64,000 nt of DNA from a virus (Duplodnaviria; Caudoviricetes): the IMG/VR virus record IMGVR_UViG_3300033067_002502, positions 106,417 to 170,416 of that record. One strand, 5' to 3'. Positions 50,360-64,000 of the stretch are shown here, one piece after another (position 1 is the stretch's first letter; each line of letters opens with the position of its first letter). The translations under genes and the position numbers were made by a program. Under the pieces are notes generated by a model. The model worked only from the letters and a program-made list of their open reading frames with translations, searched no databases and was not told the DNA's origin.

Positions 50360-51235
50360 ATGACAAATAATATTGAAGAAATTTTGAATACAATCATATT
50401 AGATGATGTTCTTTTAGGTCTTGCTAAAATTCCAGATGAATCTGTTCATTTAGTAGCGTCGTCACCTCCTTACAATGTTGACTTAAAAGGCTACAAGAAT
50501 AGAGATGATAATGAACTTTATAGTGTTTATTTAGAATGGCTAAAAGATATTATGATTCATTGTAAAAGGATTCTTGTTGATGGTGGTAGGTTGGTCATAA
50601 ATATAGATGCAATGACTAATAGACAAGAAGATTCTGATAAGGAATATGTTAGACCAATATATGCAGATCTTGTTAATATAGGAAGAGAAATAGGATTGAA
50701 TTTTCGTACAGAGATATGCTGGTATAAGCAAAATGGAGTAGGAAGAAAGACTGCTTGGGGTTCATATTGCTCTTGTTCTAATCCTATTATAAGAAGAAAT
50801 CATGAGTATCTTTTGGTTTGGTCAAAAGGTGATTGGAAACTTGATGGAGATCCTGAATTATCAGATATGACCGCTGAAGAATTTCAAAAATGGACATTTT
50901 CAACTTGGTTTGTTCAGCCAGAAACTAGAAATAGAAACAACCATCCAGCTCCATTTCCAGAAGAGCTAATAAAAAGAGTAATAAAGCTTTTTTCATATAG
51001 AGGAAATACAGTTCTTGATCCTTTTAGCGGAACAGGTACTACGGCTGTTGTTGCAAAGATGTTTGGAAGGAATTATATTGGTATTGATAATTCTAAATCA
51101 GATGTTGAGTATTCTGTAGATAGAATATCTTCTGTTGTTAATATATTTGACAATTACGTTCCTCGTTCTAAACGAATGGAAATAGAAAAGTCAGATAAAA
51201 ATGTCGAAGATATAGGTATGAATGAGGTTTTTTGA
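50360..51235 (+). CDS. DNA methyltransferase, beta class, probably N4-cytosine (SPPY)
   Basis: SSPPYN...HEYLLV...HPAPFPEEL...VLDPFSGTGTT. Confidence 0.9.
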   Translation: MTNNIEEILNTIILDDVLLGLAKIPDESVHLVASSPPYNVDLKGYKNRDDNELYSVYLEWLKDIMIHCKRILVDGGRLVINIDAMTNRQEDSDKEYVRPIYADLVNIGREIGLNFRTEICWYKQNGVGRKTAWGSYCSCSNPIIRRNHEYLLVWSKGDWKLDGDPELSDMTAEEFQKWTFSTWFVQPETRNRNNHPAPFPEELIKRVIKLFSYRGNTVLDPFSGTGTTAVVAKMFGRNYIGIDNSKSDVEYSVDRISSVVNIFDNYVPRSKRMEIEKSDKNVEDIGMNEVF

Positions 51236-52761: not shown

Positions 52762-53040
52762 ATTCCTTTATATAAATATGAAATTCTAGATGAAAAAGGT
52801 AATTCTACAAATGAATTTGTAGAAATTATGCAAAAAATGAGCGAAGACCATCTAACTATAGATCCTGACACAGGAAAACCGATTCGTCGTGTTATATGCT
52901 GTCCAACAGTTAGAGATGGACGACCAGCTTGGGAAAGGTGTTCTGATGTTAGAGATCATATTCGCAGAACTAAACCTAAATGGGTTAATGATAAAGAAAA
53001 AGGCATAAAAGAAAAGTTCGATCCTAAGAAGCATGGATAA
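52762..53040 (+). CDS. FmdB-family regulatory protein (Cys-free variant) with probable ATT start
   Basis: Extending the 52828 ORF gives (M)PLYKYEILDEKG...FVEIMQKMSEDHLTIDPDTGKPIRRVI, matching the FmdB MPxYxY...FE..Q.M....L...P...RVI pattern; GAGAGG SD 5 nt before ATT. Confidence 0.7.
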   Translation: MPLYKYEILDEKGNSTNEFVEIMQKMSEDHLTIDPDTGKPIRRVICCPTVRDGRPAWERCSDVRDHIRRTKPKWVNDKEKGIKEKFDPKKHG

Positions 53041-53042
53041 TC

Positions 53043-53390
53043 ATGAGATATGTTCGCAAACAAATTACAACTCAAATAATAGCTGATGAAGTCGTTGATG
53101 ATGTCGAAGTTATCAAAGGAATACTTAAGACGTTTAATCAAGTAAAAACAGACGTATCAATTAGCTATAGAAAAAATAAAATGGATATGCTTTCTTCTCA
53201 CGAAAGAGTAAGAATTGTGTCTGTATTTGAAGATACTTTTGATATAACCGTTATAAATACAACAAGTAGTATGATAGTTAGAAAAATACCAATTTCAAAT
53301 ATTGAATATCTTGCTTCTACAATATCTCCTTCAGAGATATTTCTAAAAAAAGATTGTGTTAGCAAGGGCGATACACTAGATATGTCATAA
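53043..53390 (+). CDS. Hypothetical protein (115 aa), possibly YolD/WYL-like SH3 fold
   Basis: VSISY...VRIVSV...FDITV...IPISNIEYL beta pattern; lies directly upstream of dnaE. Fold call is weak. Confidence 0.55.
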   Translation: MRYVRKQITTQIIADEVVDDVEVIKGILKTFNQVKTDVSISYRKNKMDMLSSHERVRIVSVFEDTFDITVINTTSSMIVRKIPISNIEYLASTISPSEIFLKKDCVSKGDTLDMS

Positions 53391-53438
53391 AGCAGTGTTT
53401 TACAAGAAATATTGCCTAATTATTGACGAATAATAATA

Positions 53439-56048
53439 ATGAGTAAAACGTTATCTAATGCAGATTTTGTACATTTACATTGCCACTCGGAATATTCATC
53501 TTTTGATGGATTGAATAAAATTTCCCAATTCCCAAAAGCTGCAAAAGAAATGGGATTTAATGCACTTGCTCTAACAGATCACGGCAATATGGGCGGAGCA
53601 ATAAAATTTATGCAGGGCTGCAAAGCTGTTGATATAAAGCCTATTGTTGGTACTGAATTTTATCTTTCTAAAAACAGAAAAGTCAATTATACTGAAAAAA
53701 GAGAAGGAACTAAGATTACAAAAGGTCAAACAGATGGCCGTAAGGGTAATAGGCACCTTGTCTTAATAGCTAAAAATTGGGAAGGATGGCAAAATTTATG
53801 TACTCTTTCCCAAAGATCGTGGACAGAAGGATATTACATCGATCCAAGAATTGATATAAATCTACTTGCCGAATTTAGCGGAGGTTTGATTTGTAATTCA
53901 GCTTGTTTATCAAGCGTGATTAATGGCAACCTACTTCACGGAAGGTATAAAGAAGCACTAACTGCTGTGGGGATTTTTAAAGACATTTTTAAGGAAGATT
54001 TTCACCTTGAGGTGATGTATCATGGAATTGATGCAGAGGGAATGATAATACCTGATGTTATAAAATTAAGTAAAGAAATGAATGTTCCAATAATTGCAAC
54101 AAATGACTGCTTTGTTGCGGGGACAATGATTCGATCTCAGGGTGGCGTGATCCCAATAGAAAATATTTCAAAAAGAGATTTAGTTTTAACACATAAAAAT
54201 CGTTTTAGTCCTGTAGAATTTACAAATCAAAGAGTTGTTGATAAAACTTTCGTAGTAAAAACTGTATTAGGAACTTCCGCCTTTGAAACAACTGCAGAAC
54301 ACCCTGTATTAATTGTTCATAAAATTGGGACGAAATTTTCCGAACCAGAATGGAAATCTATTTCTTCTATAACAAATAATGATTATTTGTTACTACATAA
54401 GAATTATTCTGAAAAACAAGCATACGAATCTAGACCTGATATAGAATCAATTTATATTCCTGAAATAATTGGGGATAAATACAATTCAGATATCTTGGAA
54501 GATTCATATTATTTTACTCAGCAAGGTTTTGGAGGAAGAAAAGGACAAATTAAAATTCCTACAAATCTTGAACTTTGTGATGATTTACTGTTTATTATTG
54601 GAAGATTTATTGCTGAAGGATATTCAGACCAATCTTCTCATCAAATAGGGTTTGCGGCTAATTGCTCAGAAAAGCATATTCAAGACCGTATTGAATCTTA
54701 TTTTGCAAAATTTGGAGTTACGTCTTATAGGCCAGAAAAGGGTAAAGATTGTAAACTTGTTTTTACTTCTAAGATTTTTAAGGCTTTATTTACTTCTCTA
54801 TGCGGAATAGGTGCGGAAAATAAGCATTTACCATTAATAAATGGAAGTTATTTTACCTATTCTCGTAGACAAATGTTGAAAATCCTTGAAGGATACATTG
54901 GAGGTGATGGGCATATCGCAACAAAACCAGATAGGACTTCTGTTTTATGTGCAACAACTTCCAAACTTCTTGCATATCAAATTTCTGATGTTTTTCATGC
55001 TTTGGGTTTTATTTCATTACCAACCGTTAGGGACTTTAGTAAAGTAAAACATAAAAATCCAAAAGCAAATCCACAAAATTGGTCTCCTTTGTACGTTTTA
55101 CATATGAGTGAAATAGATATAAAACAATTTTGTAATCTGATAAATATAAAAAGAGAAATAATAGAGACAAAAAAAGTATCTCGTAGAAAATTTATTGATA
55201 TTGGTGATTACTTTGCTGTTAAAGTAAAATCCGTAATAGAAAATACAGAACAAAAAGTTGTATACAATATTCAAGTGCATGGAGATGAAAGTTATACAGC
55301 AAATTCTTATGTAGTACACAATTGTCATTATTGCAAAAAAGAGCAAGGACTTTCTCAAGAAATTCTTATGTGTATGTCTACGAGTAAGTGCCTTCATGAT
55401 CCAAAGCATTTGCATTTTCCATATCATGAATTTTATCTTAAATCTGCTGCTGAAATGGGCAAAATTTTTGGGTCTAATCCAGAGTTTTTGTTAAATACAG
55501 TTGCTGTTTCTGATAAAGTTGATTTCAAAAATATTTGGGAAAATCTAACTTCGGGAATGAGACTTCCTAGATATAAGATCCCAGAAAATTACTCATCTCC
55601 ATTAGATTATCTTACTAAATTATCATGGGAAGGTATGAAGAAATTAGGATGGGATAAAAGTCAGCCTCATATAGAAAGATTAAATATTGAGCTAGAAGAT
55701 GTTAGAGTCGCTTGGGAAAACAATAAGTATGATTTTGCAACTTATTTCCTTATTGTTAGAGATTATATACAAAAAGCAAAAGATAATAATATATTAACTG
55801 GATGCGGAAGAGGATCTGGTTATGCTAGTGTTTTATTGAGAACCATTGGCATTACATATGGTCCAGATCCTTTGAAATATGATCTTATTTGGGAAAGATT
55901 TCTTGGATTTGACTCGAAATATTTTGTTCAAGAACAGGATTTCTTTGGGGAAGCAGCAAAGGTTTCTGTTGAAGAAAAATCTACGCATGAAGAATTGTTT
56001 AAAGATAGAGATGTTGTAGATGATGCTGGTGGAGTAGATAGGTATTAA
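53439..56048 (+). CDS. dnaE: DNA polymerase III alpha, fragment 1 (PHP and first part of palm), intein-containing
   Basis: FVHLHCHSEYSSFDG, ALTDHGN, HLVLIAKN, ATND|CHY, YFLIVRDYI, GCGRGSG, DPLKYDLIWERFL, then a 47-aa non-DnaE tail. Confidence 0.92.
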   Translation: MSKTLSNADFVHLHCHSEYSSFDGLNKISQFPKAAKEMGFNALALTDHGNMGGAIKFMQGCKAVDIKPIVGTEFYLSKNRKVNYTEKREGTKITKGQTDGRKGNRHLVLIAKNWEGWQNLCTLSQRSWTEGYYIDPRIDINLLAEFSGGLICNSACLSSVINGNLLHGRYKEALTAVGIFKDIFKEDFHLEVMYHGIDAEGMIIPDVIKLSKEMNVPIIATNDCFVAGTMIRSQGGVIPIENISKRDLVLTHKNRFSPVEFTNQRVVDKTFVVKTVLGTSAFETTAEHPVLIVHKIGTKFSEPEWKSISSITNNDYLLLHKNYSEKQAYESRPDIESIYIPEIIGDKYNSDILEDSYYFTQQGFGGRKGQIKIPTNLELCDDLLFIIGRFIAEGYSDQSSHQIGFAANCSEKHIQDRIESYFAKFGVTSYRPEKGKDCKLVFTSKIFKALFTSLCGIGAENKHLPLINGSYFTYSRRQMLKILEGYIGGDGHIATKPDRTSVLCATTSKLLAYQISDVFHALGFISLPTVRDFSKVKHKNPKANPQNWSPLYVLHMSEIDIKQFCNLINIKREIIETKKVSRRKFIDIGDYFAVKVKSVIENTEQKVVYNIQVHGDESYTANSYVVHNCHYCKKEQGLSQEILMCMSTSKCLHDPKHLHFPYHEFYLKSAAEMGKIFGSNPEFLLNTVAVSDKVDFKNIWENLTSGMRLPRYKIPENYSSPLDYLTKLSWEGMKKLGWDKSQPHIERLNIELEDVRVAWENNKYDFATYFLIVRDYIQKAKDNNILTGCGRGSGYASVLLRTIGITYGPDPLKYDLIWERFLGFDSKYFVQEQDFFGEAAKVSVEEKSTHEELFKDRDVVDDAGGVDRY
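54108..55322 (+). mobile_element. Cis-intein (405 aa) with LAGLIDADG endonuclease, in the DnaE PHP TND-x-HY motif
   Basis: CFVAGTMI...TTAEHPV...VYNIQVHGDESYTANSYVVHN|C; motifs IGRFIAEG and EGYIGGDG. Confidence 0.95.
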
Positions 56049-56053
56049 TAAAT

Positions 56054-56599
56054 ATGGAAATGAAAATGGAAATAGATAAGAGTTTAAAAGGCAAAGAAGC
56101 TTCTCGTTTTCGCAAAGAAGATTTTGAATGCGATGTTCTTGCGAAGATGACGGTCTTTAGCTTATTGCATAGACTTGGTGCTAATAATTTGATTGCCGAA
56201 GCAGGTTCTGAAATTAATTTACCCTATTATCGAGATATTGAATGTGATTTGAATGGGAAGCATTTAATTATAAGTGCAGAGATTAAGACAATCTGGAAAT
56301 TTGGAAATGGATTTTTCCCTTTTGATACAATTCAGATTCTAAACAGAAAAGCAAAGGAAGCTCCTCATAATAAGAATAAATTTACAACGTTTATGATTTG
56401 TAGTGACGACTTAAAGGGTGTAGCAGTAATTAAATACGAATCATATGACAAGATTAACCCAGTGAAAATAAATACAAGTCGTGGAGAAGATTACGTTCGG
56501 CAAGTTCCTATTTCTGAAGTTACTTTTTATAGGTTGACTAATTATAGAAAAAATGAATGGGAAATTCTTAGAGATAAAACATGGCAGATACTATCGTAA
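56054..56599 (+). CDS. Putative PD-(D/E)xK nuclease (restriction-endonuclease-like)
   Basis: RDIECD...ISAEIKTIW...FPFDTIQILNRK gives a D-x14-E-x-K catalytic pattern. Confidence 0.5.
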   Translation: MEMKMEIDKSLKGKEASRFRKEDFECDVLAKMTVFSLLHRLGANNLIAEAGSEINLPYYRDIECDLNGKHLIISAEIKTIWKFGNGFFPFDTIQILNRKAKEAPHNKNKFTTFMICSDDLKGVAVIKYESYDKINPVKINTSRGEDYVRQVPISEVTFYRLTNYRKNEWEILRDKTWQILS

Positions 56600-57420
56600 A
56601 AAGGGTTGGAGGTAAAATAAAGATTAGGAAATGGATAAAAAGTTTATTTCCTATTCATAGTCTTTATTGCGAACCTTTTGGAGGTAGTTTTGCTGTTGGG
56701 TTTCTTATGCCAAAACAAGATGCAAAATATAGGCTTGTTTATAATGATTTAGATGGAAATGTTTGGAATCTTTTCAAGGTTCTTAGAGATCATGAAAAAG
56801 AATTTATAAGAATGGTATCTCTCACTCCATATAGTAGAAGAGAATTTGATGAAGCAAATGATTACATAGATAATAAAAAATTTCTTTTGAAAGATGAACC
56901 AGTTGAGTGGGCTAGAAATTATTTAGTATATAACAGACAATGCATGTTTGGTAAAGAAGATGGATCTTGGTGCGTCTCTAGGGTTGGAGAGAATATCTGC
57001 CTTACTTGGGCTAATTTGCCGAGTCTAATTAAAGATAATATCAAATTTCTTCGTAATGTGTATATAGAAAATTTGGATTATAAAAAATGTATTGAAAAAT
57101 GGGACTGTCCTGAAGCCTTGTTTTATTTAGATCCTCCGTATGAAGGGGTTGAGAAAGACTTTTATAAGGTCAATAAAAAAGAAGGCTTTGATCATGTTGA
57201 TTTTTCTAAATTTGTAAAAACAGTAAAAGGAAGCTGTGCAATCTCTTATTATGATTCCGAATTTGTCCGAAATCTATATCAAGAAAAAGATGGATTTACT
57301 ATTTATGAAAAATCTGTCGTAAAAAGCATGCAGACTAAAAAAGAAAAAGATACAGTAACGGAATTGTTAATAGTCAAAGAAAGCAATTGGGCCAAGAGTG
57401 TAGAAAAATCTATATTTTAG
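56581..57420 (+). CDS. Dam-like DNA adenine methyltransferase (D12, alpha class)
   Basis: GGK, YCEPFGGS, VYNDLD, IENLDY, FYLDPPY, TELLI. Confidence 0.9.
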   Translation: MADTIVKRVGGKIKIRKWIKSLFPIHSLYCEPFGGSFAVGFLMPKQDAKYRLVYNDLDGNVWNLFKVLRDHEKEFIRMVSLTPYSRREFDEANDYIDNKKFLLKDEPVEWARNYLVYNRQCMFGKEDGSWCVSRVGENICLTWANLPSLIKDNIKFLRNVYIENLDYKKCIEKWDCPEALFYLDPPYEGVEKDFYKVNKKEGFDHVDFSKFVKTVKGSCAISYYDSEFVRNLYQEKDGFTIYEKSVVKSMQTKKEKDTVTELLIVKESNWAKSVEKSIF

Positions 57421-57427
57421 GAATAAT

Positions 57428-58414
57428 ATGTCAGAAATAAAACAAGAAATAATTGATGCAGTAAAAGATAAAAGTTTGCTTTCAAAAGTTCAAGAAGAAC
57501 TTAATCAAATGGAGGCTACTGACGGTTTAGATGATAAGCCTATTCTAAATAAGTTTCATGGTCTTTGGAAGAACTCAAAAGGAAACATAGGTCATCGTAA
57601 TGACATTAATTCATGGACAGCATATGCGATAGGCATGACAGATAAAAAGCCAGAAGAAGGCTCTTCTTTTTTGCAAAAAAGACGGGCTTTTGCTCGTAAG
57701 GGCTTTCCTGATATTGATTCTGATTTTGACTACGAACATCGTGATAAAATTTACGAATACATAATTGAAACATACGGAAGAGATCATGTAGGTAATATTG
57801 GAACTTATTCTGGTTTGAAGATGAAAAGTTTTATTCGTAGAGCGGTTAAGGCTACAGATCCAGAGCGAACATTTTTCAAGGGGTTTGATGAATGGAAAAC
57901 GTCAACAAATTTGCTTGGCGATGAAATATTAAAATCACTGCCTGATCAATACGGAGCTTTCTTAAAAGTAAAAGATAAAAATGGAGAAGAACATGAAATT
58001 AGAACCGTTGAAGATGCTAATAAGTGGTGCAAAAACTTTCGCTATTATATTGATAAGTATCCCGATTTGCTTACGCATTCTCGTAGTATTGAGGGACTTT
58101 TATCCACTTTTGGATGTTTGTCAGCCAATACTCCTATTCTTACTTCAGATGGCTGGATAAGAATAGATCAACTTAATAATCACAAAATAGCCTTTTTAGA
58201 TAAAAACAGTAATCTATCTTATTCTGATAAATATATTTGCAAATTTACAGGAATTAAAAAAACTTATAAACTTAGACTGAAGAATGGTAATTTTATTGAA
58301 GTTACTGATGAGCATTTAATTTTTACGAATAAAGGACTTAAAAAATTCAAAGAAATTAGAGAAAATCCAAAGGAATTTTTACTGTATTCATTGAATACAG
58401 ATCCTGCTGCATGA
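57428..58414 (+). CDS. dnaE: DNA polymerase III alpha, fragment 2 (catalytic PDID palm and thumb) ending in a split-intein N-part
   Basis: ~88-aa extra N-terminus, then GFPDIDSDF...YG.DHV..IGTY...IEGLLSTFG|CLSANTPI. Confidence 0.9.
   Translation: MSEIKQEIIDAVKDKSLLSKVQEELNQMEATDGLDDKPILNKFHGLWKNSKGNIGHRNDINSWTAYAIGMTDKKPEEGSSFLQKRRAFARKGFPDIDSDFDYEHRDKIYEYIIETYGRDHVGNIGTYSGLKMKSFIRRAVKATDPERTFFKGFDEWKTSTNLLGDEILKSLPDQYGAFLKVKDKNGEEHEIRTVEDANKWCKNFRYYIDKYPDLLTHSRSIEGLLSTFGCLSANTPILTSDGWIRIDQLNNHKIAFLDKNSNLSYSDKYICKFTGIKKTYKLRLKNGNFIEVTDEHLIFTNKGLKKFKEIRENPKEFLLYSLNTDPAA
58115..58411 (+). mobile_element. Split intein N-fragment (99 aa)
   Basis: Block A CLSANTPILTSDG and block B IEVTDEHLIFT; no block F/G before the stop. 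Confidence 0.92.
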
Positions 58415-59283
58415 AGTATGCTGTAGGAGACATTAAAATGGAAAAATGCAATATTTGTAACAAAGAATTTAGTAGTGAAATTGGATTAAAAAGACACGTA
58501 ACTATAATGTTTGGAAAAGACAGTACTCATTGTCCTTGGTTAGTATATTTATCAAAATACAAAAATATAGATAAATATAGTAAAAATTCTTTAGAAAAAA
58601 TGTATTTAATTGAAAAGAAAACAACTCCTCAGATTTCTCAAGAATTGAATGTTCAAAAATTAACATTATTAAGAACAATGAAATATTATGATATTAAATT
58701 AAGAAATCGCTCAGAGTCTACAAAGAATCAAATTACTAGAGACGGAGTATGGAATGCTGGAAAAACAAAATATAATAATAAATCTATTGCTAGATATTCT
58801 CGTTCTAGATTGGGCAAATTGAATCCATTTTATACTGCTCCTGGATATGAAGAAAGATATAAAAAACTAATGAATGTTGCCAAAAAGGGTATTGCAAAAT
58901 TTTGCGCAAATAGAAATCCAAAAACAACAGAAGATCGTTTATCTAAAATATTAAAAAATGTAAATATTAATTATGTAAGAAATTTTTCTATAAATTACAA
59001 CCAAACATGGAGATTGTTTGATTTTCTTATAGAAGGAAATCTTCTTGTAGAAATGCAGGGTAATTATTTTCACGCTAATCCTAAATTTTATAAATCAAAT
59101 GATATTGTTGTAATAGGTTCTGAAAAAAGATTGGTAAGAGAAATTTGGGAAAAAGATAAAGAGAAGGCTTCTCTTGCAATTAATAGCGGTTATTCTTTAT
59201 TAGTGATTTGGGAAGATGATTTTTGTGACATGACCGACGAAGAAGTATTGTTAAAAATAAAGGAAGAACTACATGATAATTGA
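58411..59283 (+). CDS. Free-standing homing endonuclease, Vsr/DUF559-like, with Zn-finger, HTH and NUMOD3-like DNA-binding modules
   Basis: CNICNKEF...LKRH; LEKMY...ISQELNV; WNAGKTK...KLNPFY; TTE...LFDFLI...LVEMQGNYFH...DKEK...GYSLLVIWE. Overlaps both dnaE fragments. Confidence 0.8.
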   Translation: MKYAVGDIKMEKCNICNKEFSSEIGLKRHVTIMFGKDSTHCPWLVYLSKYKNIDKYSKNSLEKMYLIEKKTTPQISQELNVQKLTLLRTMKYYDIKLRNRSESTKNQITRDGVWNAGKTKYNNKSIARYSRSRLGKLNPFYTAPGYEERYKKLMNVAKKGIAKFCANRNPKTTEDRLSKILKNVNINYVRNFSINYNQTWRLFDFLIEGNLLVEMQGNYFHANPKFYKSNDIVVIGSEKRLVREIWEKDKEKASLAINSGYSLLVIWEDDFCDMTDEEVLLKIKEELHDN

Positions 59284-59413
59284 TTTTGTTGAAATAGATT
59301 CTATAACTGAAATTAAAGAACAACCAGTTTATGATATATCTTTTGGAGATACAAAACTTGATTTTTTTCAAAAAGAGCCAAATTATTTTGCTAATAAGAT
59401 ATTAGTACATAAT
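59273..59413 (+). mobile_element. Split intein C-fragment (47 aa)
   Basis: MIIDFVEIDSI...PVYDIS...PNYFANKILVHN followed by Cys; blocks F and G only. Confidence 0.92.
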
Positions 59414-60697
59414 TGTCATGCTGCTGGAATTGTGATTTCTAGTGAACCTTTGTCAAAAATATCTCCTCTTAGACAAACTAAGATTGCATCAGAAGATGCA
59501 GATGGCACTCCTAAATATGCATTTGCTACTCAGTTTGAGTATAATGACTTAGAATTTATTGGTCTTATTAAGTTTGATATCTTGGCATTAAGTACTTTGT
59601 CTGTTATAAATAGGTGTTGTAAATTAATTAAAGATAATTATGATATAAATATAAATCTATGGGATCTTCCCCTTGATGATAAAAAAACATTTGATCTTTA
59701 TAAGAGTGGTAAATTGTCTGGAGTTTTCCAATGCGAAGAACCTGGAATGCAAAAAACAATGATAAACATGGGAGTTGACTCTCTTGATGATATTATGGCA
59801 GGAATTGCATTGTACCGTCCTGGTCCTATGGATTCTATTCCTACTTATTGTGGAAGAAAACACGGAGTAGAGCCAATTGACTATTTTCATTCTTCTCTTA
59901 AGAAATATATTGAACCTCATGTAAGAAAAACGTATGGTCTTTTGGTTTATCAAGAACAAGTTATGAATATATGTAACTCTGTTGCTAATTTTTCAATTCC
60001 AGAAGGTTATGTTGTTATCAAAGCAATCGGTAAGAAAGATCCAAAACTTTTAGCAAAATATAGAAGTAAATTTGTTTCTGGTGCTAAAGAAAACGGTATT
60101 GAAGATAAAGTATCTCAAGATTACTGGGATAGAGTTATTACTCCATTTGCTAGCTATGGATTTAATAAGGCACATGCTTGTTGTTATGCTTATAATTCTT
60201 ACATAACTGCTTATTTGAAAGCAAATTATCCAGAAGAATTTTTGACAGCCTATTTCAACGTTGAAGTCGGTAGGGCAAATTATGATAAAATTTATGTTCT
60301 AGAAAAGGTTGCTCATGAAATGAATATTGAGATTGTAAATAGAAACATAAATCATTGTAAAGTTTTGTATTCTATTGCAAAAAAAGCAGATCCAGCTAAC
60401 GGTATTCCAAAATCTCAAATTATTCCATCTCTTAAATGTAAAGGATTGAGTGATGGTGCTGCTACCGAGATTGTAAGTAAGCAACCTTTTTCTAGTCTTT
60501 TGGATTTTGCAGAAAAAACAAGCACTAAACTTGTTGATATAAAAGCTTTTGATGCTTTGTTGGATGCAGGTTTTTTTAGGCCAAAAGAGGGAAGAGGAAA
60601 GGGAAAGGAGTCTATTATGAAAGAATTTACTATTATTAGGGATGATTTAAAAAGAGCAAGAAAAAAAGGATTAGATACGGGTAATATATTTGAGTGA
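59273..60697 (+). CDS. dnaE: DNA polymerase III alpha, fragment 3 (split-intein C-part, palm end, fingers, HhH)
   Basis: IntC|CHAAGIVIS, GLIKFDILAL, GVFQCE, ALYRPGP, TYGLLVYQEQVM, YGFNKAHA, AYLKANYP.EF. Confidence 0.92.
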   Translation: MIIDFVEIDSITEIKEQPVYDISFGDTKLDFFQKEPNYFANKILVHNCHAAGIVISSEPLSKISPLRQTKIASEDADGTPKYAFATQFEYNDLEFIGLIKFDILALSTLSVINRCCKLIKDNYDININLWDLPLDDKKTFDLYKSGKLSGVFQCEEPGMQKTMINMGVDSLDDIMAGIALYRPGPMDSIPTYCGRKHGVEPIDYFHSSLKKYIEPHVRKTYGLLVYQEQVMNICNSVANFSIPEGYVVIKAIGKKDPKLLAKYRSKFVSGAKENGIEDKVSQDYWDRVITPFASYGFNKAHACCYAYNSYITAYLKANYPEEFLTAYFNVEVGRANYDKIYVLEKVAHEMNIEIVNRNINHCKVLYSIAKKADPANGIPKSQIIPSLKCKGLSDGAATEIVSKQPFSSLLDFAEKTSTKLVDIKAFDALLDAGFFRPKEGRGKGKESIMKEFTIIRDDLKRARKKGLDTGNIFE

Positions 60698-60735
60698 ATA
60701 ATTTGAAATAATATATTTTTTGGACGATTATGTTT

Positions 60736-60744
60736 TGATATAAT
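60736..60744 (+). promoter_or_regulatory. Extended -10 promoter (TGATATAAT)
   Basis: Perfect TGnTATAAT in the intergenic gap after dnaE, followed by an AAGGA SD and ATG 60764. Confidence 0.5.
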
Positions 60745-60763
60745 CATTTTAAAGGAAACAAAA

Positions 60764-61123
60764 ATGGCAACACCAAAGACTCCAGCAGTAGCACAAAGTA
60801 CACCTCAATCAACAGTAGAAATGCCAAAAGATCGTAAATCTGTTATTAGAAAGAGTATTACAAGAAAATACATTACAGCAAAATACGAAACAATGGATGT
60901 TACAGTAGATCATCAGCATGAAATAGAGTGGGATACTATAGAAAATCTAAGAAAAAAATGTAATAATTTAACTTTGCTTGTTACTAAGGATTTTGAAGAA
61001 ACAGTAGAAAAAGTAAAAGAAGAGTTAAGGGTTTTAAGTTTTGCTGCTGTTGTAAATACAGCAGAACCAGCCCGTAGAGGATTAACTATAGAAGAAAAGA
61101 AAGATTTTGATAAATTATCTTGA
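60764..61123 (+). CDS. Hypothetical protein (119 aa)
   Basis: AAGGA SD and promoter candidate upstream. Confidence 0.7.
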   Translation: MATPKTPAVAQSTPQSTVEMPKDRKSVIRKSITRKYITAKYETMDVTVDHQHEIEWDTIENLRKKCNNLTLLVTKDFEETVEKVKEELRVLSFAAVVNTAEPARRGLTIEEKKDFDKLS

Positions 61124-61140
61124 ATTTAAAGGAAGAAGAA

Positions 61141-62340
61141 ATGAGTTTGCCAATAAACGATCAGTTAGATGCTATTTTCGGTATTCCTAAAGATGGTTCG
61201 AATATAAAAGAAGAAGAAGATTCTGGTCAAGAAACTTCATATGCGGAAGTTATTGTTGCAGATGAAAAAGTTGATTTTGAAGTAAAAGCTAAAAAGATTT
61301 CTGATCAATTGGCAAAAGATGAGCCTCAAATAAGTATGATTACTGCTAAAAAAGAGGAGATATCTAATGTCAAAATCGAGCCAACCAGAGTCGAACCTGG
61401 GTCAACCAGAATCGAACAAAAAGGCAACAGCTTCGAAAAAATACTCACGGAGTCAATTCGACCTAAAAATACTATCAGCAAAGAGGTACAACCCGTGGTG
61501 CAGCAACAAGCCATTAATTATAAAGATACAGAATCGGAAGAAGAGGAAAAGGAGACTGTTCCGGTTAGCGATGCTGTAAGAAACACTCCTTCTGTTTCCC
61601 CTATTTTTGATCATAAAGCTGATGCAGATGGGTGGTTTTTGAATCCTCCATCTCCAATGTTTAATCATTTTTATTCAGAAAAATCAAATTTTATTCGCAT
61701 TATTACAAAAGGATGCAAGCCTCTTGATTTTAATAAATTAACATCAGAACTTATTTCTTCAACAGTAAGCACTAATGTTGAACTTTCAGATCTTCCTGGC
61801 ATGGCTGAAAAATTAACTCGTATTCAAGATTTCCTTGATAGAGTTGTTCAAATTAAAATACAAGCAACAAGTCAATGTGCTTCTTCAAAAAGAGGCGTTG
61901 AACTGCTTAGAGGCGTATTAGCTAAAGTAAGCTATGAAAAGCCTGCAGCCAGACAAGATGGAGTTATTTATGATCATATGAGAGATATAGAAATGTATGC
62001 TTCTAGTCTTGAATCTTTAGAACAAAACGCAAAAGATGTTTATCATAATTTATTAGAAGCTAAAGAAATACTAAGTCGTAAAATAAGCATTTCAATAGAA
62101 TTGGTAAAAGAACAAAATAAATTAGATATTTTAGAAAAAACATTTAATAATCTTCCTGAAAATGCAAAAACAGAGAGTCTGAAAAAGATTATTTCTACGC
62201 CAACAGAAACTCCTATAGTAAGTAGATTGGCTAATGAAGGTTATGATAGGCTTGAAGTTCAGGAAGCTGTTGTAAAATCTCAAATTACTACTGATAAAAA
62301 ATCTAATAAAAAATCTGGATCAATGTCGTGGTTAGACTAA
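61141..62340 (+). CDS. Hypothetical protein with acidic disordered N-terminus and coiled-coil C-domain (possible UvsY-like mediator)
   Basis: ATG 61141 preferred over TTG 61120; long amphipathic helices; lies directly before SSB and RecA. Confidence 0.6.
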   Translation: MSLPINDQLDAIFGIPKDGSNIKEEEDSGQETSYAEVIVADEKVDFEVKAKKISDQLAKDEPQISMITAKKEEISNVKIEPTRVEPGSTRIEQKGNSFEKILTESIRPKNTISKEVQPVVQQQAINYKDTESEEEEKETVPVSDAVRNTPSVSPIFDHKADADGWFLNPPSPMFNHFYSEKSNFIRIITKGCKPLDFNKLTSELISSTVSTNVELSDLPGMAEKLTRIQDFLDRVVQIKIQATSQCASSKRGVELLRGVLAKVSYEKPAARQDGVIYDHMRDIEMYASSLESLEQNAKDVYHNLLEAKEILSRKISISIELVKEQNKLDILEKTFNNLPENAKTESLKKIISTPTETPIVSRLANEGYDRLEVQEAVVKSQITTDKKSNKKSGSMSWLD

Positions 62341-62557
62341 TGAAATCTAAAGAAATAGACGATATAATAACTTACAAAAGGAGATTAAAAAACGACACAA
62401 TATAAAATAATAAAGGTATAGGATAGTTATAATAAATCAGAGTTCAGAGAATTGAGAAAAGTCTGAGTGTTTCAGATTATTCAGAGAAGACGTAAAATAA
62501 AAAAGACGAACTTAATAAAAACAGAGTTCCAGAGTTCTAGAGATTAGGAGATTTTAA

Positions 62558-63235
62558 ATGGGTACGATAATTGAGTGGGGCGAGGTTGATTCGGGAATGA
62601 AGAAGGGTGGAGGCGGCGGTAGTGGTGGAGCAGGCGGTCCTTTTGACAAGTTCTTAAAGCTTGTTCCTGGTAATACTTATACAGTAAGACCAGTAGGTAA
62701 TCCATGTGCATTTCATGCTTATTGGGTTGCTTCTCCAACAGATCCTAAACGCTTTAATAGAGCGATTACGGAAGATCCAAATAATTGCGTAATTAACCAA
62801 AAATACCAAATCGTACCTAAAACTAGGTACGCAGTCAATGTAATTGACAGAGCCGATGGTAAATTAAAAATAATGGAAGCTCCTCCTTCCGTTTTTGATA
62901 AAATCAAAGATTGGGCAAAAGCTTCTCGTCAAGATCCAGGAGCTAAGGGTGGAGCTGACTTCCAGATACAAATCGTTGTTCCTCCAAATGGAGATAAGAA
63001 ACGTAGCGAGTATAGAACTACTCCAATCGTTCAGACTCCTTTTACAGAAGAAGAAAAGGCAATGTTGACAGAAAAGGGTCTTTACGATTTAGAAGAGCAT
63101 TACAAAGCTATTCCTCAAAACGAAATTGAATCGAAGCTTTACGGAACAGTAGAAACTTCATCAAAAGCACCTGTTACGGCAGGAGCAGGGACAGCAGCAA
63201 AGGCTCGTCCAAGCAATAATGCTCTTGATTTTTGA
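62558..63235 (+). CDS. Single-stranded DNA-binding protein, T4 gp32-like
   Basis: FLKLVPG...VRPVG...YAVNVIDRADGKLKI...DP...GADFQI...EY; C-terminal LDF; strong AGGAG SD; adjacent to recA. Confidence 0.7.
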   Translation: MGTIIEWGEVDSGMKKGGGGGSGGAGGPFDKFLKLVPGNTYTVRPVGNPCAFHAYWVASPTDPKRFNRAITEDPNNCVINQKYQIVPKTRYAVNVIDRADGKLKIMEAPPSVFDKIKDWAKASRQDPGAKGGADFQIQIVVPPNGDKKRSEYRTTPIVQTPFTEEEKAMLTEKGLYDLEEHYKAIPQNEIESKLYGTVETSSKAPVTAGAGTAAKARPSNNALDF

Positions 63236-63267
63236 AAATAAGTAATAATTAAATAAGTAAATAAAAG

Positions 63268-63301
63268 GAAGGCCGTGGTAGTTTTATGTGCCACGGCTTT
63301 C
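63268..63301 (+). terminator. GC-rich hairpin, probable intrinsic terminator or processing site between ssb and recA
   Basis: GAAGGCCGTGGTA-(GTTTTATG)-TGCCACGGCTTTC, 13-bp stem with two G-U pairs, followed by an imperfect T-rich run. Confidence 0.6.
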
Positions 63302-63332
63302 TCGTTCTTACATTTTATGTAAAAGGGAAAAT

Positions 63333-64000
63333 ATGGCAAATAAGAAAAATATAGGATTAGATAATTTTGCTGGTTTCGAATTTGGAGATGATGGAAATCC
63401 AACAGAATTTATTCCAAGCGGTCATGCTGAATTAGATTATACAATTGCAAGTGGACTTCTTAGTGGAGAAAACGCAGAATTAGCTGATCAATTAATGGGA
63501 GCAGGCGGGTTTCCTACAGGCAAATTGGTTATGTTCTTTGGAGAGCCTGGTGGTGGAAAATCTTCATTAGCTTATGCAGTATGTGGCTCTGCTCAAAGAA
63601 TGGGAAAAGTCCCAATTTGGATTGATGTTGAAAATTCTTTTAGCGAGTCACTTGCTAAAATAAATGGCGTAGACTTGAAAAAACTTGGTAGAAAAGGAAT
63701 GTATGATAAGAATGATCCAGATAAGGTTTTTAGCGGAGAATATGCTTTAGAAGCCGTTATGGAGGCTTGTAAAAAGGGGGCAGGAGTTGTTGTTCTTGAT
63801 TCTGTAGCATCTCTTGTTCCAAAGTATGTTATGGACAATCCTGCTGAAAAAGAAACAATGGCTATTTTAGCAAGACTTCTTGGACGAACAGTTAATAAGA
63901 TATGTAGTTTAGCTGCTGCAAATAATACTCTTGTTATTTTCATTAATCAACTTAGAGTAAATCCTGGAGCTATGTTCAAGAATCCAGAAGGTTATCCAGG
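63333..64000 (+). CDS. recA: RecA/UvsX recombinase, 3'-truncated by the window edge (absent from the ORF track)
   Basis: Manual translation: MANKKNIG...FIPSGHAELD...GGFPTGKLVMFFGEPGGGKSSL...WIDVENS...VVVLDSVASLVP...VIFINQLR. Confidence 0.92.
   Translation, partial: MANKKNIGLDNFAGFEFGDDGNPTEFIPSGHAELDYTIASGLLSGENAELADQLMGAGGFPTGKLVMFFGEPGGGKSSLAYAVCGSAQRMGKVPIWIDVENSFSESLAKINGVDLKKLGRKGMYDKNDPDKVFSGEYALEAVMEACKKGAGVVVLDSVASLVPKYVMDNPAEKETMAILARLLGRTVNKICSLAAANNTLVIFINQLRVNPGAMFKNPEGYP

Follow-up and report, generated by a model that had tools for sequence, protein, structure and literature searches.

The stretch of DNA analysed here, hereafter the window, comprises the last 64 kb of a 170,416-bp virus record in IMG/VR (IMGVR_UViG_3300033067_002502; CheckV completeness 34%). 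Its GC content is ~30%, nearly all of its genes lie on the + strand, and its relatives have genome sizes up to 0.45–0.55 Mb, so that the record was taken to be a fragment of a huge uncultured phage. At positions 53439–60697, six co-oriented and tightly packed genes were found, three of which encode successive parts of a C-family replicative DNA polymerase (DNA polymerase III alpha subunit, DnaE). The parts of the polymerase were located as follows (aa, amino acids; HhH, helix-hairpin-helix).

53439..56048, + strand: DnaE gene 1, 869 aa, with the PHP domain, a cis intein, the N-terminal segment of the palm (palm N-segment) and an acidic tail (Pfam PHP 3.6e-41; DNA_pol3_alpha profile positions 1–97)
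55806..55820, + strand: GS loop for nucleotide binding, GRGSG (E. coli G363-S364), part of chain 1 and without variation in 43 N-half homologues; the N-half of a relative aligns to E. coli DnaE across the loop
55890..55904, + strand: WERFL (E. coli ERFL, R390), the final canonical residues of chain 1
55905..56045, + strand: 47-aa acidic tail, GFDSKYFVQEQDFF, followed by a variable acidic linker and the C-terminal DRDVVDDAGGVDRY, kept in >100 homologues
57428..58414, + strand: DnaE gene 2, 328 aa, with an extension, the catalytic DxD strand, the thumb and the N-part of a split intein (Pfam DNA_pol3_alpha positions 69–158, from residue 61)
57428..57685, + strand: N-terminal extension of gene 2, 86 aa to ...FLQKRR (88 aa before ARKGF), interpreted as a diverged second palm N-segment
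57707..57727, + strand: PDIDSDF, the catalytic aspartates (E. coli D401, D403) on chain 2, aligned to E. coli and T. aquaticus DnaE and invariant in 31 homologues
59273..60697, + strand: DnaE gene 3, 474 aa, with the C-fragment of the split intein, the second part of the palm, the fingers and the HhH domain (Pfam DNA_pol3_finger 2.5e-49, HHH_6 9.5e-8, DNA_pol3_alpha positions 212–260)
59570..59584, + strand: KFDIL, the third catalytic aspartate (E. coli D555), aligned to E. coli DnaE 514–632 and T. aquaticus DnaE 575–692

Motifs were assigned to the three genes by alignment to solved single-chain DnaE sequences, which gave matches of 1e-13 to 8e-18. The N-half of a close relative aligns to E. 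coli DnaE 224–417 and its C-half to 344–446, and in the alignment of the gene 3 extein to E. coli DnaE 514–632 the stretch glikfdilal stands opposite glvkfdflgl. By these alignments the GS loop and R390 lie on gene 1, R396 (within the ARK ahead of PDIDSDF), D401 and D403 on gene 2, where 88 residues precede ARKGFPDIDSDF, and D555 on gene 3. The encoded proteins have the PHP domain, the palm with GS loop and three aspartates, the fingers with HhH and the overall fold of a C-family DnaE; the catalytic core does not form a single polypeptide, as gene 1 ends in a stop codon at 56046–56048, a new start follows at 57428 with two genes in between, and the palm motifs GRGSG, PDIDSDF and KFDIL are spread over two gene products. 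Removal of the intein parts leaves predicted lengths of 464 aa for chain 1 and 656 aa for chain 2. A preliminary description of the locus, made from the sequence alone, had given the same anatomy, products of ~464 and ~656 aa and the same distribution of E. coli residues over the three genes; every feature was found at its coordinates, the sizes were reproduced after subtracting the cis and the split intein, and the numbering was upheld by the solved chains.

In the 43 N-half homologues, GRGSG, ERFL and the PHP positions H14, H16, D23, H61, E91, H124, C174, D241 and H243 are invariant. From what is known of DnaE1 we take these nine positions to be the metal ligands; none of them varies within the clade, so that proofreading exonuclease activity is probable for the PHP domain. 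At the enzyme's opposite terminus, gene 3 ends (60608–60694) in ...KKGLDTGNIFE, where the family has the consensus KKGV-x-x-x-D-[IL]-F-x at the extreme C-terminus; this might be a sliding-clamp-binding peptide.

Several devices that could join the two halves at the break between genes 1 and 2 (the first break) were considered, namely RNA splicing, translational bypass and a cryptic protein-splicing element. The tail and the extension, searched alone, gave no Hint or intein family match in Pfam even at E ≤ 10, which agrees with the earlier statement that neither carries intein motifs. The tail begins with Gly and the extension ends in KRRAF, so that no HN and no Cys, Ser or Thr nucleophile at +1 is present, and the Hint blocks of an intein are lacking across 55905–57691. 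No intron was detected with Rfam in 53000–61000 at E ≤ 1. The intergenic gaps at the locus are 5 and 7 nt long and the other neighbours overlap, and no + strand terminator was seen there. In one relative (L010) the halves are just 14 nt apart and the junction reads stop, Shine-Dalgarno-like AGG, ATG, which speaks against joining at the RNA level. Single-chain homologues that carry the insert are found in nature, which shows that a joined form is viable, and the genome is rich in inteins; a joining of the halves in the window nevertheless appears highly improbable, given that 1.38 kb with two conserved protein genes separates them, that tail and extension show conservation at the protein level and come with a stop, a ribosome-binding site and start codons of their own, and that the extension is homologous to the palm and not to an intein. 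The sequence evidence thus supports the view that no covalent joining mechanism is detectable at this break, and the product would therefore be a two-chain enzyme of 464 + 656 aa.

The split was followed through database searches (cluster counts made at 90% identity) and through inspection of 18 loci in related phages. The N-half with its tail was recovered in at least 255 clusters and the C-half with its extension in 63. The tail follows the pattern GFD-x-K-x-F-[VI]-x-E-x-D-F, a variable acidic linker, and [DE]R[DE]V-x-[DE]D-x-GGVDRY at the C-terminus, with mean pairwise identities of 59% in the first 15 aa, 16% in the linker and 72% in the last 14 aa. Residues 58–92 of the extension have a mean pairwise identity of 64%, and thus both they and the end of the tail are better conserved than the catalytic core (56–62%). 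The mean net charge is -10 for the tail and +4.9 for the basic end of the extension. Invariant positions of the C-half (31 homologues) include the DxD strand and, within the extension, G58, N61, S65, A68, T74, P78, R88 and R89. The open frames of tail and extension do not occur by chance, because both are conserved in hundreds of homologues.

The polymerase is split in 15 of the 18 loci, and the halves differ in their spacing and ends. In L016 they are separated by a 2.9-kb gap with eight small open reading frames (ORFs). In L015 (5940–6120) the N-half ends 14 aa past ERFL (GFDTKRFVKEQDFV), and the apparent TTG start of the C-half overlaps the stop in the +1 frame; this minimal-tail form is possibly translationally coupled. 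Homologues in which the insert is fused, for which the preliminary description had proposed a search, do exist: in these single chains of ~1100–1117 aa the insert is internal and consists of the complete extension together with the proximal tail; the acidic linker and GGVDRY are lacking. Other single-chain homologues of ~990 aa have no insert and read ERFL-[AG]F-...-GKR-x-FAR-x-GFPDID. Among the hits in a library of 1.84 billion representatives, the extension was N-terminal in most and internal in two. Two trees built on the C-terminal part show the split, fused and insert-free states intermingled (at least 4–5 changes each, required by well-supported branches), which may stem from losses or fusions that recurred, from a spreading insert, or from recombination. 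Blastn of the locus against GenBank phages gave no match, and tblastn against the same phages retrieved only canonical DnaE at ≤ 36% identity, so that the split was absent from all GenBank phages in the collection searched.

Two relatives are complete genomes with direct terminal repeats (498,568 and 460,978 bp, CheckV 100%), and in both the split pair was the only polymerase found; no other DnaE, PolA or PolB was present. Two further partial genomes likewise had no other polymerase beside the split pair, and no second DnaE, PolA or PolB was found in the window's own partial record or in that of L004, a 258-kb contig of a relative at ~70% identity. These data bear on the idea that mobile DNA has broken the polymerase gene, which is now in decay, and that another polymerase replicates the phage, a condition under which the preliminary description would regard its reading as refuted. 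The window gene does carry three insertions of mobile type: besides the cis intein there are a split intein, which holds a free-standing endonuclease gene, and a cassette of nuclease and methylase genes. The contig, moreover, is only 34% complete. Against this, every frame is open, all catalytic motifs are intact, and the same split recurs in hundreds of clusters under strong purifying selection; together with the complete relatives, these observations lead us to reject decay, to which we give hardly any credence. We regard the intein-free break as an ancient trait of a large clade of uncultured phages of ~0.45–0.55 Mb, which is not peculiar to the phage of the window.

The extension of gene 2 had been described as resembling a degenerate copy of the palm segment already present in gene 1. 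Pfam and PDB alignments extend from the true palm into it, which could be the result of over-extension alone, and the extension was therefore tested by itself. An extension-only profile was compared by HHalign with a palm N-segment profile (the 103 residues ahead of the DxD strand in 51 canonical phage DnaEs), giving a probability of 95% and P = 2.5e-8 over 64 columns, and reversed and shuffled controls were flat. In a hmmsearch, a hidden Markov model of 61 extensions matched a canonical 1216-aa DnaE with p = 2.5e-5, placing extension residues 9–82 on residues 316–390, the correct collinear segment. Matching elements comprise a helix with RL-x-x-EL, one with FLIV, the GS loop (decayed in the extension to G-x-x-N-x-I-N-S) and a helix with SLVAY-x-LGIT. 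Other comparisons were negative: HHalign found no match between the extension and the gene 1 palm segment of its own enzyme (P = 0.19), the extension alone matched nothing in Pfam and nothing relevant among PDB profiles at E ≤ 10, and in the 1.84 billion representatives it retrieved extension-bearing proteins only and no canonical DnaE. A fixed-register BLOSUM test gave z values up to 5.9 only for members with canonical spacing and failed for the extension family as a whole owing to indels of 1–2 residues.

An AlphaFold2 (AF2) model of a naturally fused homologue had a predicted local distance difference test score (pLDDT) of 90.8. In it, both palm copies are built in the order helix, helix, loop, short helix, strand, and a 10-residue linker of low confidence (disordered) separates them. 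The model superposes on solved DnaE with Z 41–46 and a root-mean-square deviation of 4–6 Å over ~880–900 of 1106 residues, and the unmatched remainder is about as long as the insert. We thus consider the extension to be a real, diverged second copy of the palm N-segment, visible by targeted test only, in line with the earlier suggestion. A corresponding origin of the tail as a decayed copy of the DxD region (FVQEQDFF vs. FPDIDSDF, by eye) was not supported (fixed-register z -0.8; HHalign P = 0.15). The AF2 model gives no more than a hint of a short strand in the tail equivalent to the DxD strand, and these comparisons revealed no sequence of which the tail could be a copy.

The complex modelling proposed in the preliminary description was carried out with the halves of a relative, an L004-type N-half (480 aa) and residues 1–500 of the C-half, which are 74% and 69–83% identical to those of the window. 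The chains joined in 3/3 runs with an ipSAE (a score of predicted interaction) of 0.87, compared with 0.15 for the best control; that mark was reached by 58/80 solved complexes and 2/110 mismatched pairs. Partner pLDDT was ≥ 82 and contact agreement between runs ≥ 88%. On chain 1 the confident interface includes residues 398–409 (GS loop) and 432–450 and 452 (ERFL and the first ~18 residues of the tail), and on chain 2 residues 31–63 and 85–93 of the extension and 96–104 of the DxD strand. Since the two chains come from a fold already solved in single-chain form, the success of the model partly reflects that likeness.

The presence of a second palm copy on chain 2 also raises the possibility of a division of labour, in which chain 2 is a self-sufficient polymerase that uses its own copy, and chain 1 is a separate PHP proofreading exonuclease whose palm remnant serves as a docking piece only. 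The homology, high conservation and confidently predicted fold of the extension would suit such an arrangement, as would the invariant PHP metal-ligand positions of chain 1. We consider it improbable, however: the nucleotide-binding residues of the GS loop are replaced in the extension (R-G-S aligns to x-x-N), G-x-G-R-G-S-G and E-R-F-L are invariant in the 43 diverse chain 1 homologues and would not be needed for mere docking, unsplit relatives without the insert retain only the segment of the chain 1 type, and the complex model places the GS loop of chain 1 at the interface with the DxD strand.

We therefore favour, as the likely explanation, that the phage makes its C-family replicative polymerase as two polypeptides that dock non-covalently into one active site. 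Chain 1, of 464 aa once the cis intein has excised itself, would supply the first half of the palm, with GRGSG and ERFL, along with a PHP exonuclease domain that looks intact, while chain 2, of 656 aa once the split intein has joined the products of genes 2 and 3, would supply the three catalytic aspartates, the thumb, the fingers and HhH. The chains would stay unjoined and rebuild a single active site over their interface by docking. Chain 2 would start with a helical, folded module that duplicates, in decayed form, the palm segment at the end of chain 1; this module and the first ~15–18 residues of the tail lie at the predicted interface and probably stabilise the assembly. The distal tail, with its acidic linker and GGVDRY, presumably has a conserved role. 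The non-covalent two-chain enzyme put forward in the preliminary description is thus well supported by comparative evidence and modelling. Its further proposal, a new clasp formed by both extensions, is supported only in part: in the model each of the two, for the tail its first ~18 residues, contacts the opposite chain, the contacts reported do not specify any between tail and extension themselves, and the GGVDRY end is not confidently placed.

The lack of a reported contact between tail and extension is one of several points that weigh against the two-chain enzyme as we describe it. The complex was built from the proteins of a relative, and those of the window carry inteins, the splicing of both of which we infer from motifs and from intein-free relatives. 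A high ipSAE is to be expected for the halves of a known fold. The window contig is ~34% complete, and a second polymerase could still lie elsewhere in this genome. Finally, tails are short or different in some relatives (14, 23 and 38 aa), so that the architecture does not depend on the long tail.

The second break, between genes 2 and 3, and the interruption within gene 1 are of a different kind. The elements found there are the following (the slash marks a splice junction).

54108..55322, + strand: cis intein, 405 aa (aa 224–628 of gene 1), with a LAGLIDADG homing-endonuclease domain, IIATND/CFVAGT...YVVHN/CHYC (Pfam Hint_2, Intein_splicing, LAGLIDADG_3)
58115..58411, + strand: N-fragment of the split intein, 99 aa, STFG/CLSANTPIL... 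(weak Pfam Intein_splicing match, 0.0057)
58411..59283, + strand: ORF290, a free-standing gene between the split-intein halves, with N-terminal C2H2-like zinc finger matches (PHROG HNH-endonuclease families 1e-5 to 1e-3; phrog_22677 6e-15)
59273..59413, + strand: C-fragment of the split intein, 47 aa, ending ...ILVHN/CHAAG, with an extein junction that agrees with L004

The cis intein is positioned between the Asp and the His of the D-x-H metal motif of the PHP domain (ATND/CHY). At the second break the N-fragment begins with Cys, the C-fragment ends in HN followed by Cys at +1, removal of the fragments restores the host motif, and ORF290 lies between them, as in fractured genes. The insertion site (STFG/HAAG) presumably differs from that of the cyanobacterial split DnaE intein. 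L004 has neither intein and reads an uninterrupted NDCHYC at the first site and STFGVHAAG straight through at the second; both inteins are likewise missing from L010 and others, and we regard them as later additions than the first break. The one cis-splice and one trans-splice of DnaE that had been predicted for the locus are supported by these uninterrupted sites, and we infer them for the mature enzyme. ORF290 is a putative homing endonuclease, although no nuclease domain was identified in it by Pfam or PDB searches. Its start and stop overlap the neighbouring genes, and its C-terminal stretch (LVEMQGNYFH...) looks Vsr/DUF559-like by eye only; family searches gave no confirmation.

The gap between the two halves is occupied in the window by two genes.

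56054..56599, + strand: ORF181, a cargo gene, candidate PD-(D/E)xK endonuclease, with homologous ORFs at the same place in L004 (29% identity, E 2e-10) and L013
56581..57420, + strand: a cargo gene for a Dam-family (D12 class) N6-adenine DNA methyltransferase, overlapping the end of ORF181 (Pfam MethyltransfD12 4.3e-23; phrog_56 4.4e-56; TIGR00571 below cut-off)

ORF181 matched no Pfam, NCBIfam or PHROG family. In ORF181 and its homologues E53, D61, E76 and K78 are invariant, and its AF2 model (pLDDT 65) consists of a helix followed by strands; the best Foldseek matches were the homing endonuclease I-Ssp6803I (PD-(D/E)xK), Hjc and NhoI, all of them non-significant (E ≥ 0.1). For ORF181 and Dam, two readings are possible: restriction-modification, or homing by a nuclease that is paired with a protecting methylase. 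The same two-gene cassette, a PD-(D/E)xK-like ORF overlapping Dam, lies inside the split in three phages (window 56054–57420, L004 5780–7176, L013 3770–5143), and those of L004 and L013 add a MazG/HisE-like 103-aa ORF and an ORF of ~200 aa. In L004 the order is a stop after the conserved tail, the nuclease-like ORF, Dam, two more ORFs and a 661-aa C-half with the same extension.

Across the clade the cargo comprises S-adenosylmethionine (SAM)-dependent methyltransferases, ClpP, Dam and unassigned genes; in L014 (5352–5978), L006 (5380–6042) and L016 (3058–5961) the gap holds a ClpP protease gene, a SAM methyltransferase or up to eight small ORFs. Because the cargo differs so widely between relatives, the gap is suggested to be an insertion hot spot, and it may thus have become a place where accessory or selfish genes settle. 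A few kb upstream of dnaE, the window (50360–51235), L004 (505–2135) and L006 (209–1784) also carry one or two genes for N6/N4 DNA methyltransferases, and with the Dam gene in the split these phages have several DNA methylases around the replication module. Downstream of dnaE (window 60764–63998) synteny is kept in the clade, with proteins of ~105–120 aa, ~400 aa and ~225 aa and a RecA-like ATPase (63288 onwards, cut by the end of the window), which in the relatives is followed by a Toprim primase and a SpoVS-like protein.

The insert as a whole (tail, extension and intervening DNA) may also be viewed, tentatively and with considerable doubt on our part, as a self-propagating gene-splitting module, in which a nuclease cassette homes into an unsplit dnaE at the ERFL/DxD loop and brings a spare palm copy that enables reassembly. 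Such a module would make insertion harmless and would account for the mixture of split, fused and insert-free forms across the polymerase tree.

With single-chain DnaE (E. coli 2HNH/5FKU, T. aquaticus 2HPI/3E0D, M. tuberculosis DnaE1 5LEW/7PU7), the enzyme of the window shares the domain order (PHP, palm, thumb, palm, fingers, HhH) as well as the GS loop, ERFL, DxD and KFD motifs. It differs in being made of two polypeptides cut between R390 and R396, in the additional degenerate palm copy of ~86 aa and the 47-aa acidic tail at the cut, and in lacking the OB-fold and the tau-binding C-terminal region.

A split Pol III alpha has been described in group 2.2 (T4-like) jumbo phages, where a minimal form, without PHP or other domains, is divided into two proteins, one with the NTP-binding subdomain (N-terminal) and one with the subdomain that binds Mg2+ and template (C-terminal); the two genes lie far apart, and the phages have a family B polymerase as well (Iyer et al. 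2021, PMC7824862). The topological boundary of the split is the same. In the window, however, the enzyme is full-size with a PHP domain, its halves are neighbours, the cut is flanked by a duplicated palm module, and in the complete relatives this type of enzyme is the only polymerase detected.

A second parallel is NrdA of Aeromonas phage Aeh1, which is split by the mobE endonuclease and whose oppositely charged tails are essential for activity (Crona et al. 2010, PMC3045599). Both are essential phage enzymes cut in the active-site region without RNA or protein splicing, both have a mobile nuclease gene between the halves (in the window a candidate one), and in both the tails at the cut are oppositely charged. 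The Aeh1 split is a single-lineage event with tails that are foreign or of unknown origin, whereas the split described here is clade-wide, its N-terminal 'tail' duplicates the enzyme's own palm segment, and its cargo varies and can be absent. Fractured genes, in which a free-standing endonuclease gene lies between the halves of a split intein (Dassa et al. 2009, PMC2677866), share their layout with the gene 2/ORF290/gene 3 junction, and the likeness holds for this second break only. Surveys of C-family polymerases from bacteria speak only of genes that are frameshifted or split by inteins, and our literature searches yielded no account of a full-size, adjacent, duplication-flanked DnaE split. 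We regard such a split as a variation on the known themes of 'genes in pieces' and split polymerases.

If the two-chain reading is correct, the enzyme would be a natural replicative C-family polymerase with its nucleotide-binding loop and its catalytic metal ligands on different polypeptides, and the active site of DnaE would tolerate assembly in trans. It would also be a case of gene fission with a leftover duplicate of the enzyme's own structure at the cut, in contrast to the foreign tails of Aeh1 NrdA. Annotation pipelines give one half the label 'PHP domain protein' and the other 'DNA polymerase III alpha', and could miss that they form one enzyme. The system offers a natural setting for studying how closure of the palm is coupled to proofreading by the PHP domain, and the gap between the halves marks a site in these genomes where selfish or accessory genes settle. 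For the phages themselves, the split DnaE appears to be the sole replicase of a widespread clade with genomes of ~0.5 Mb.

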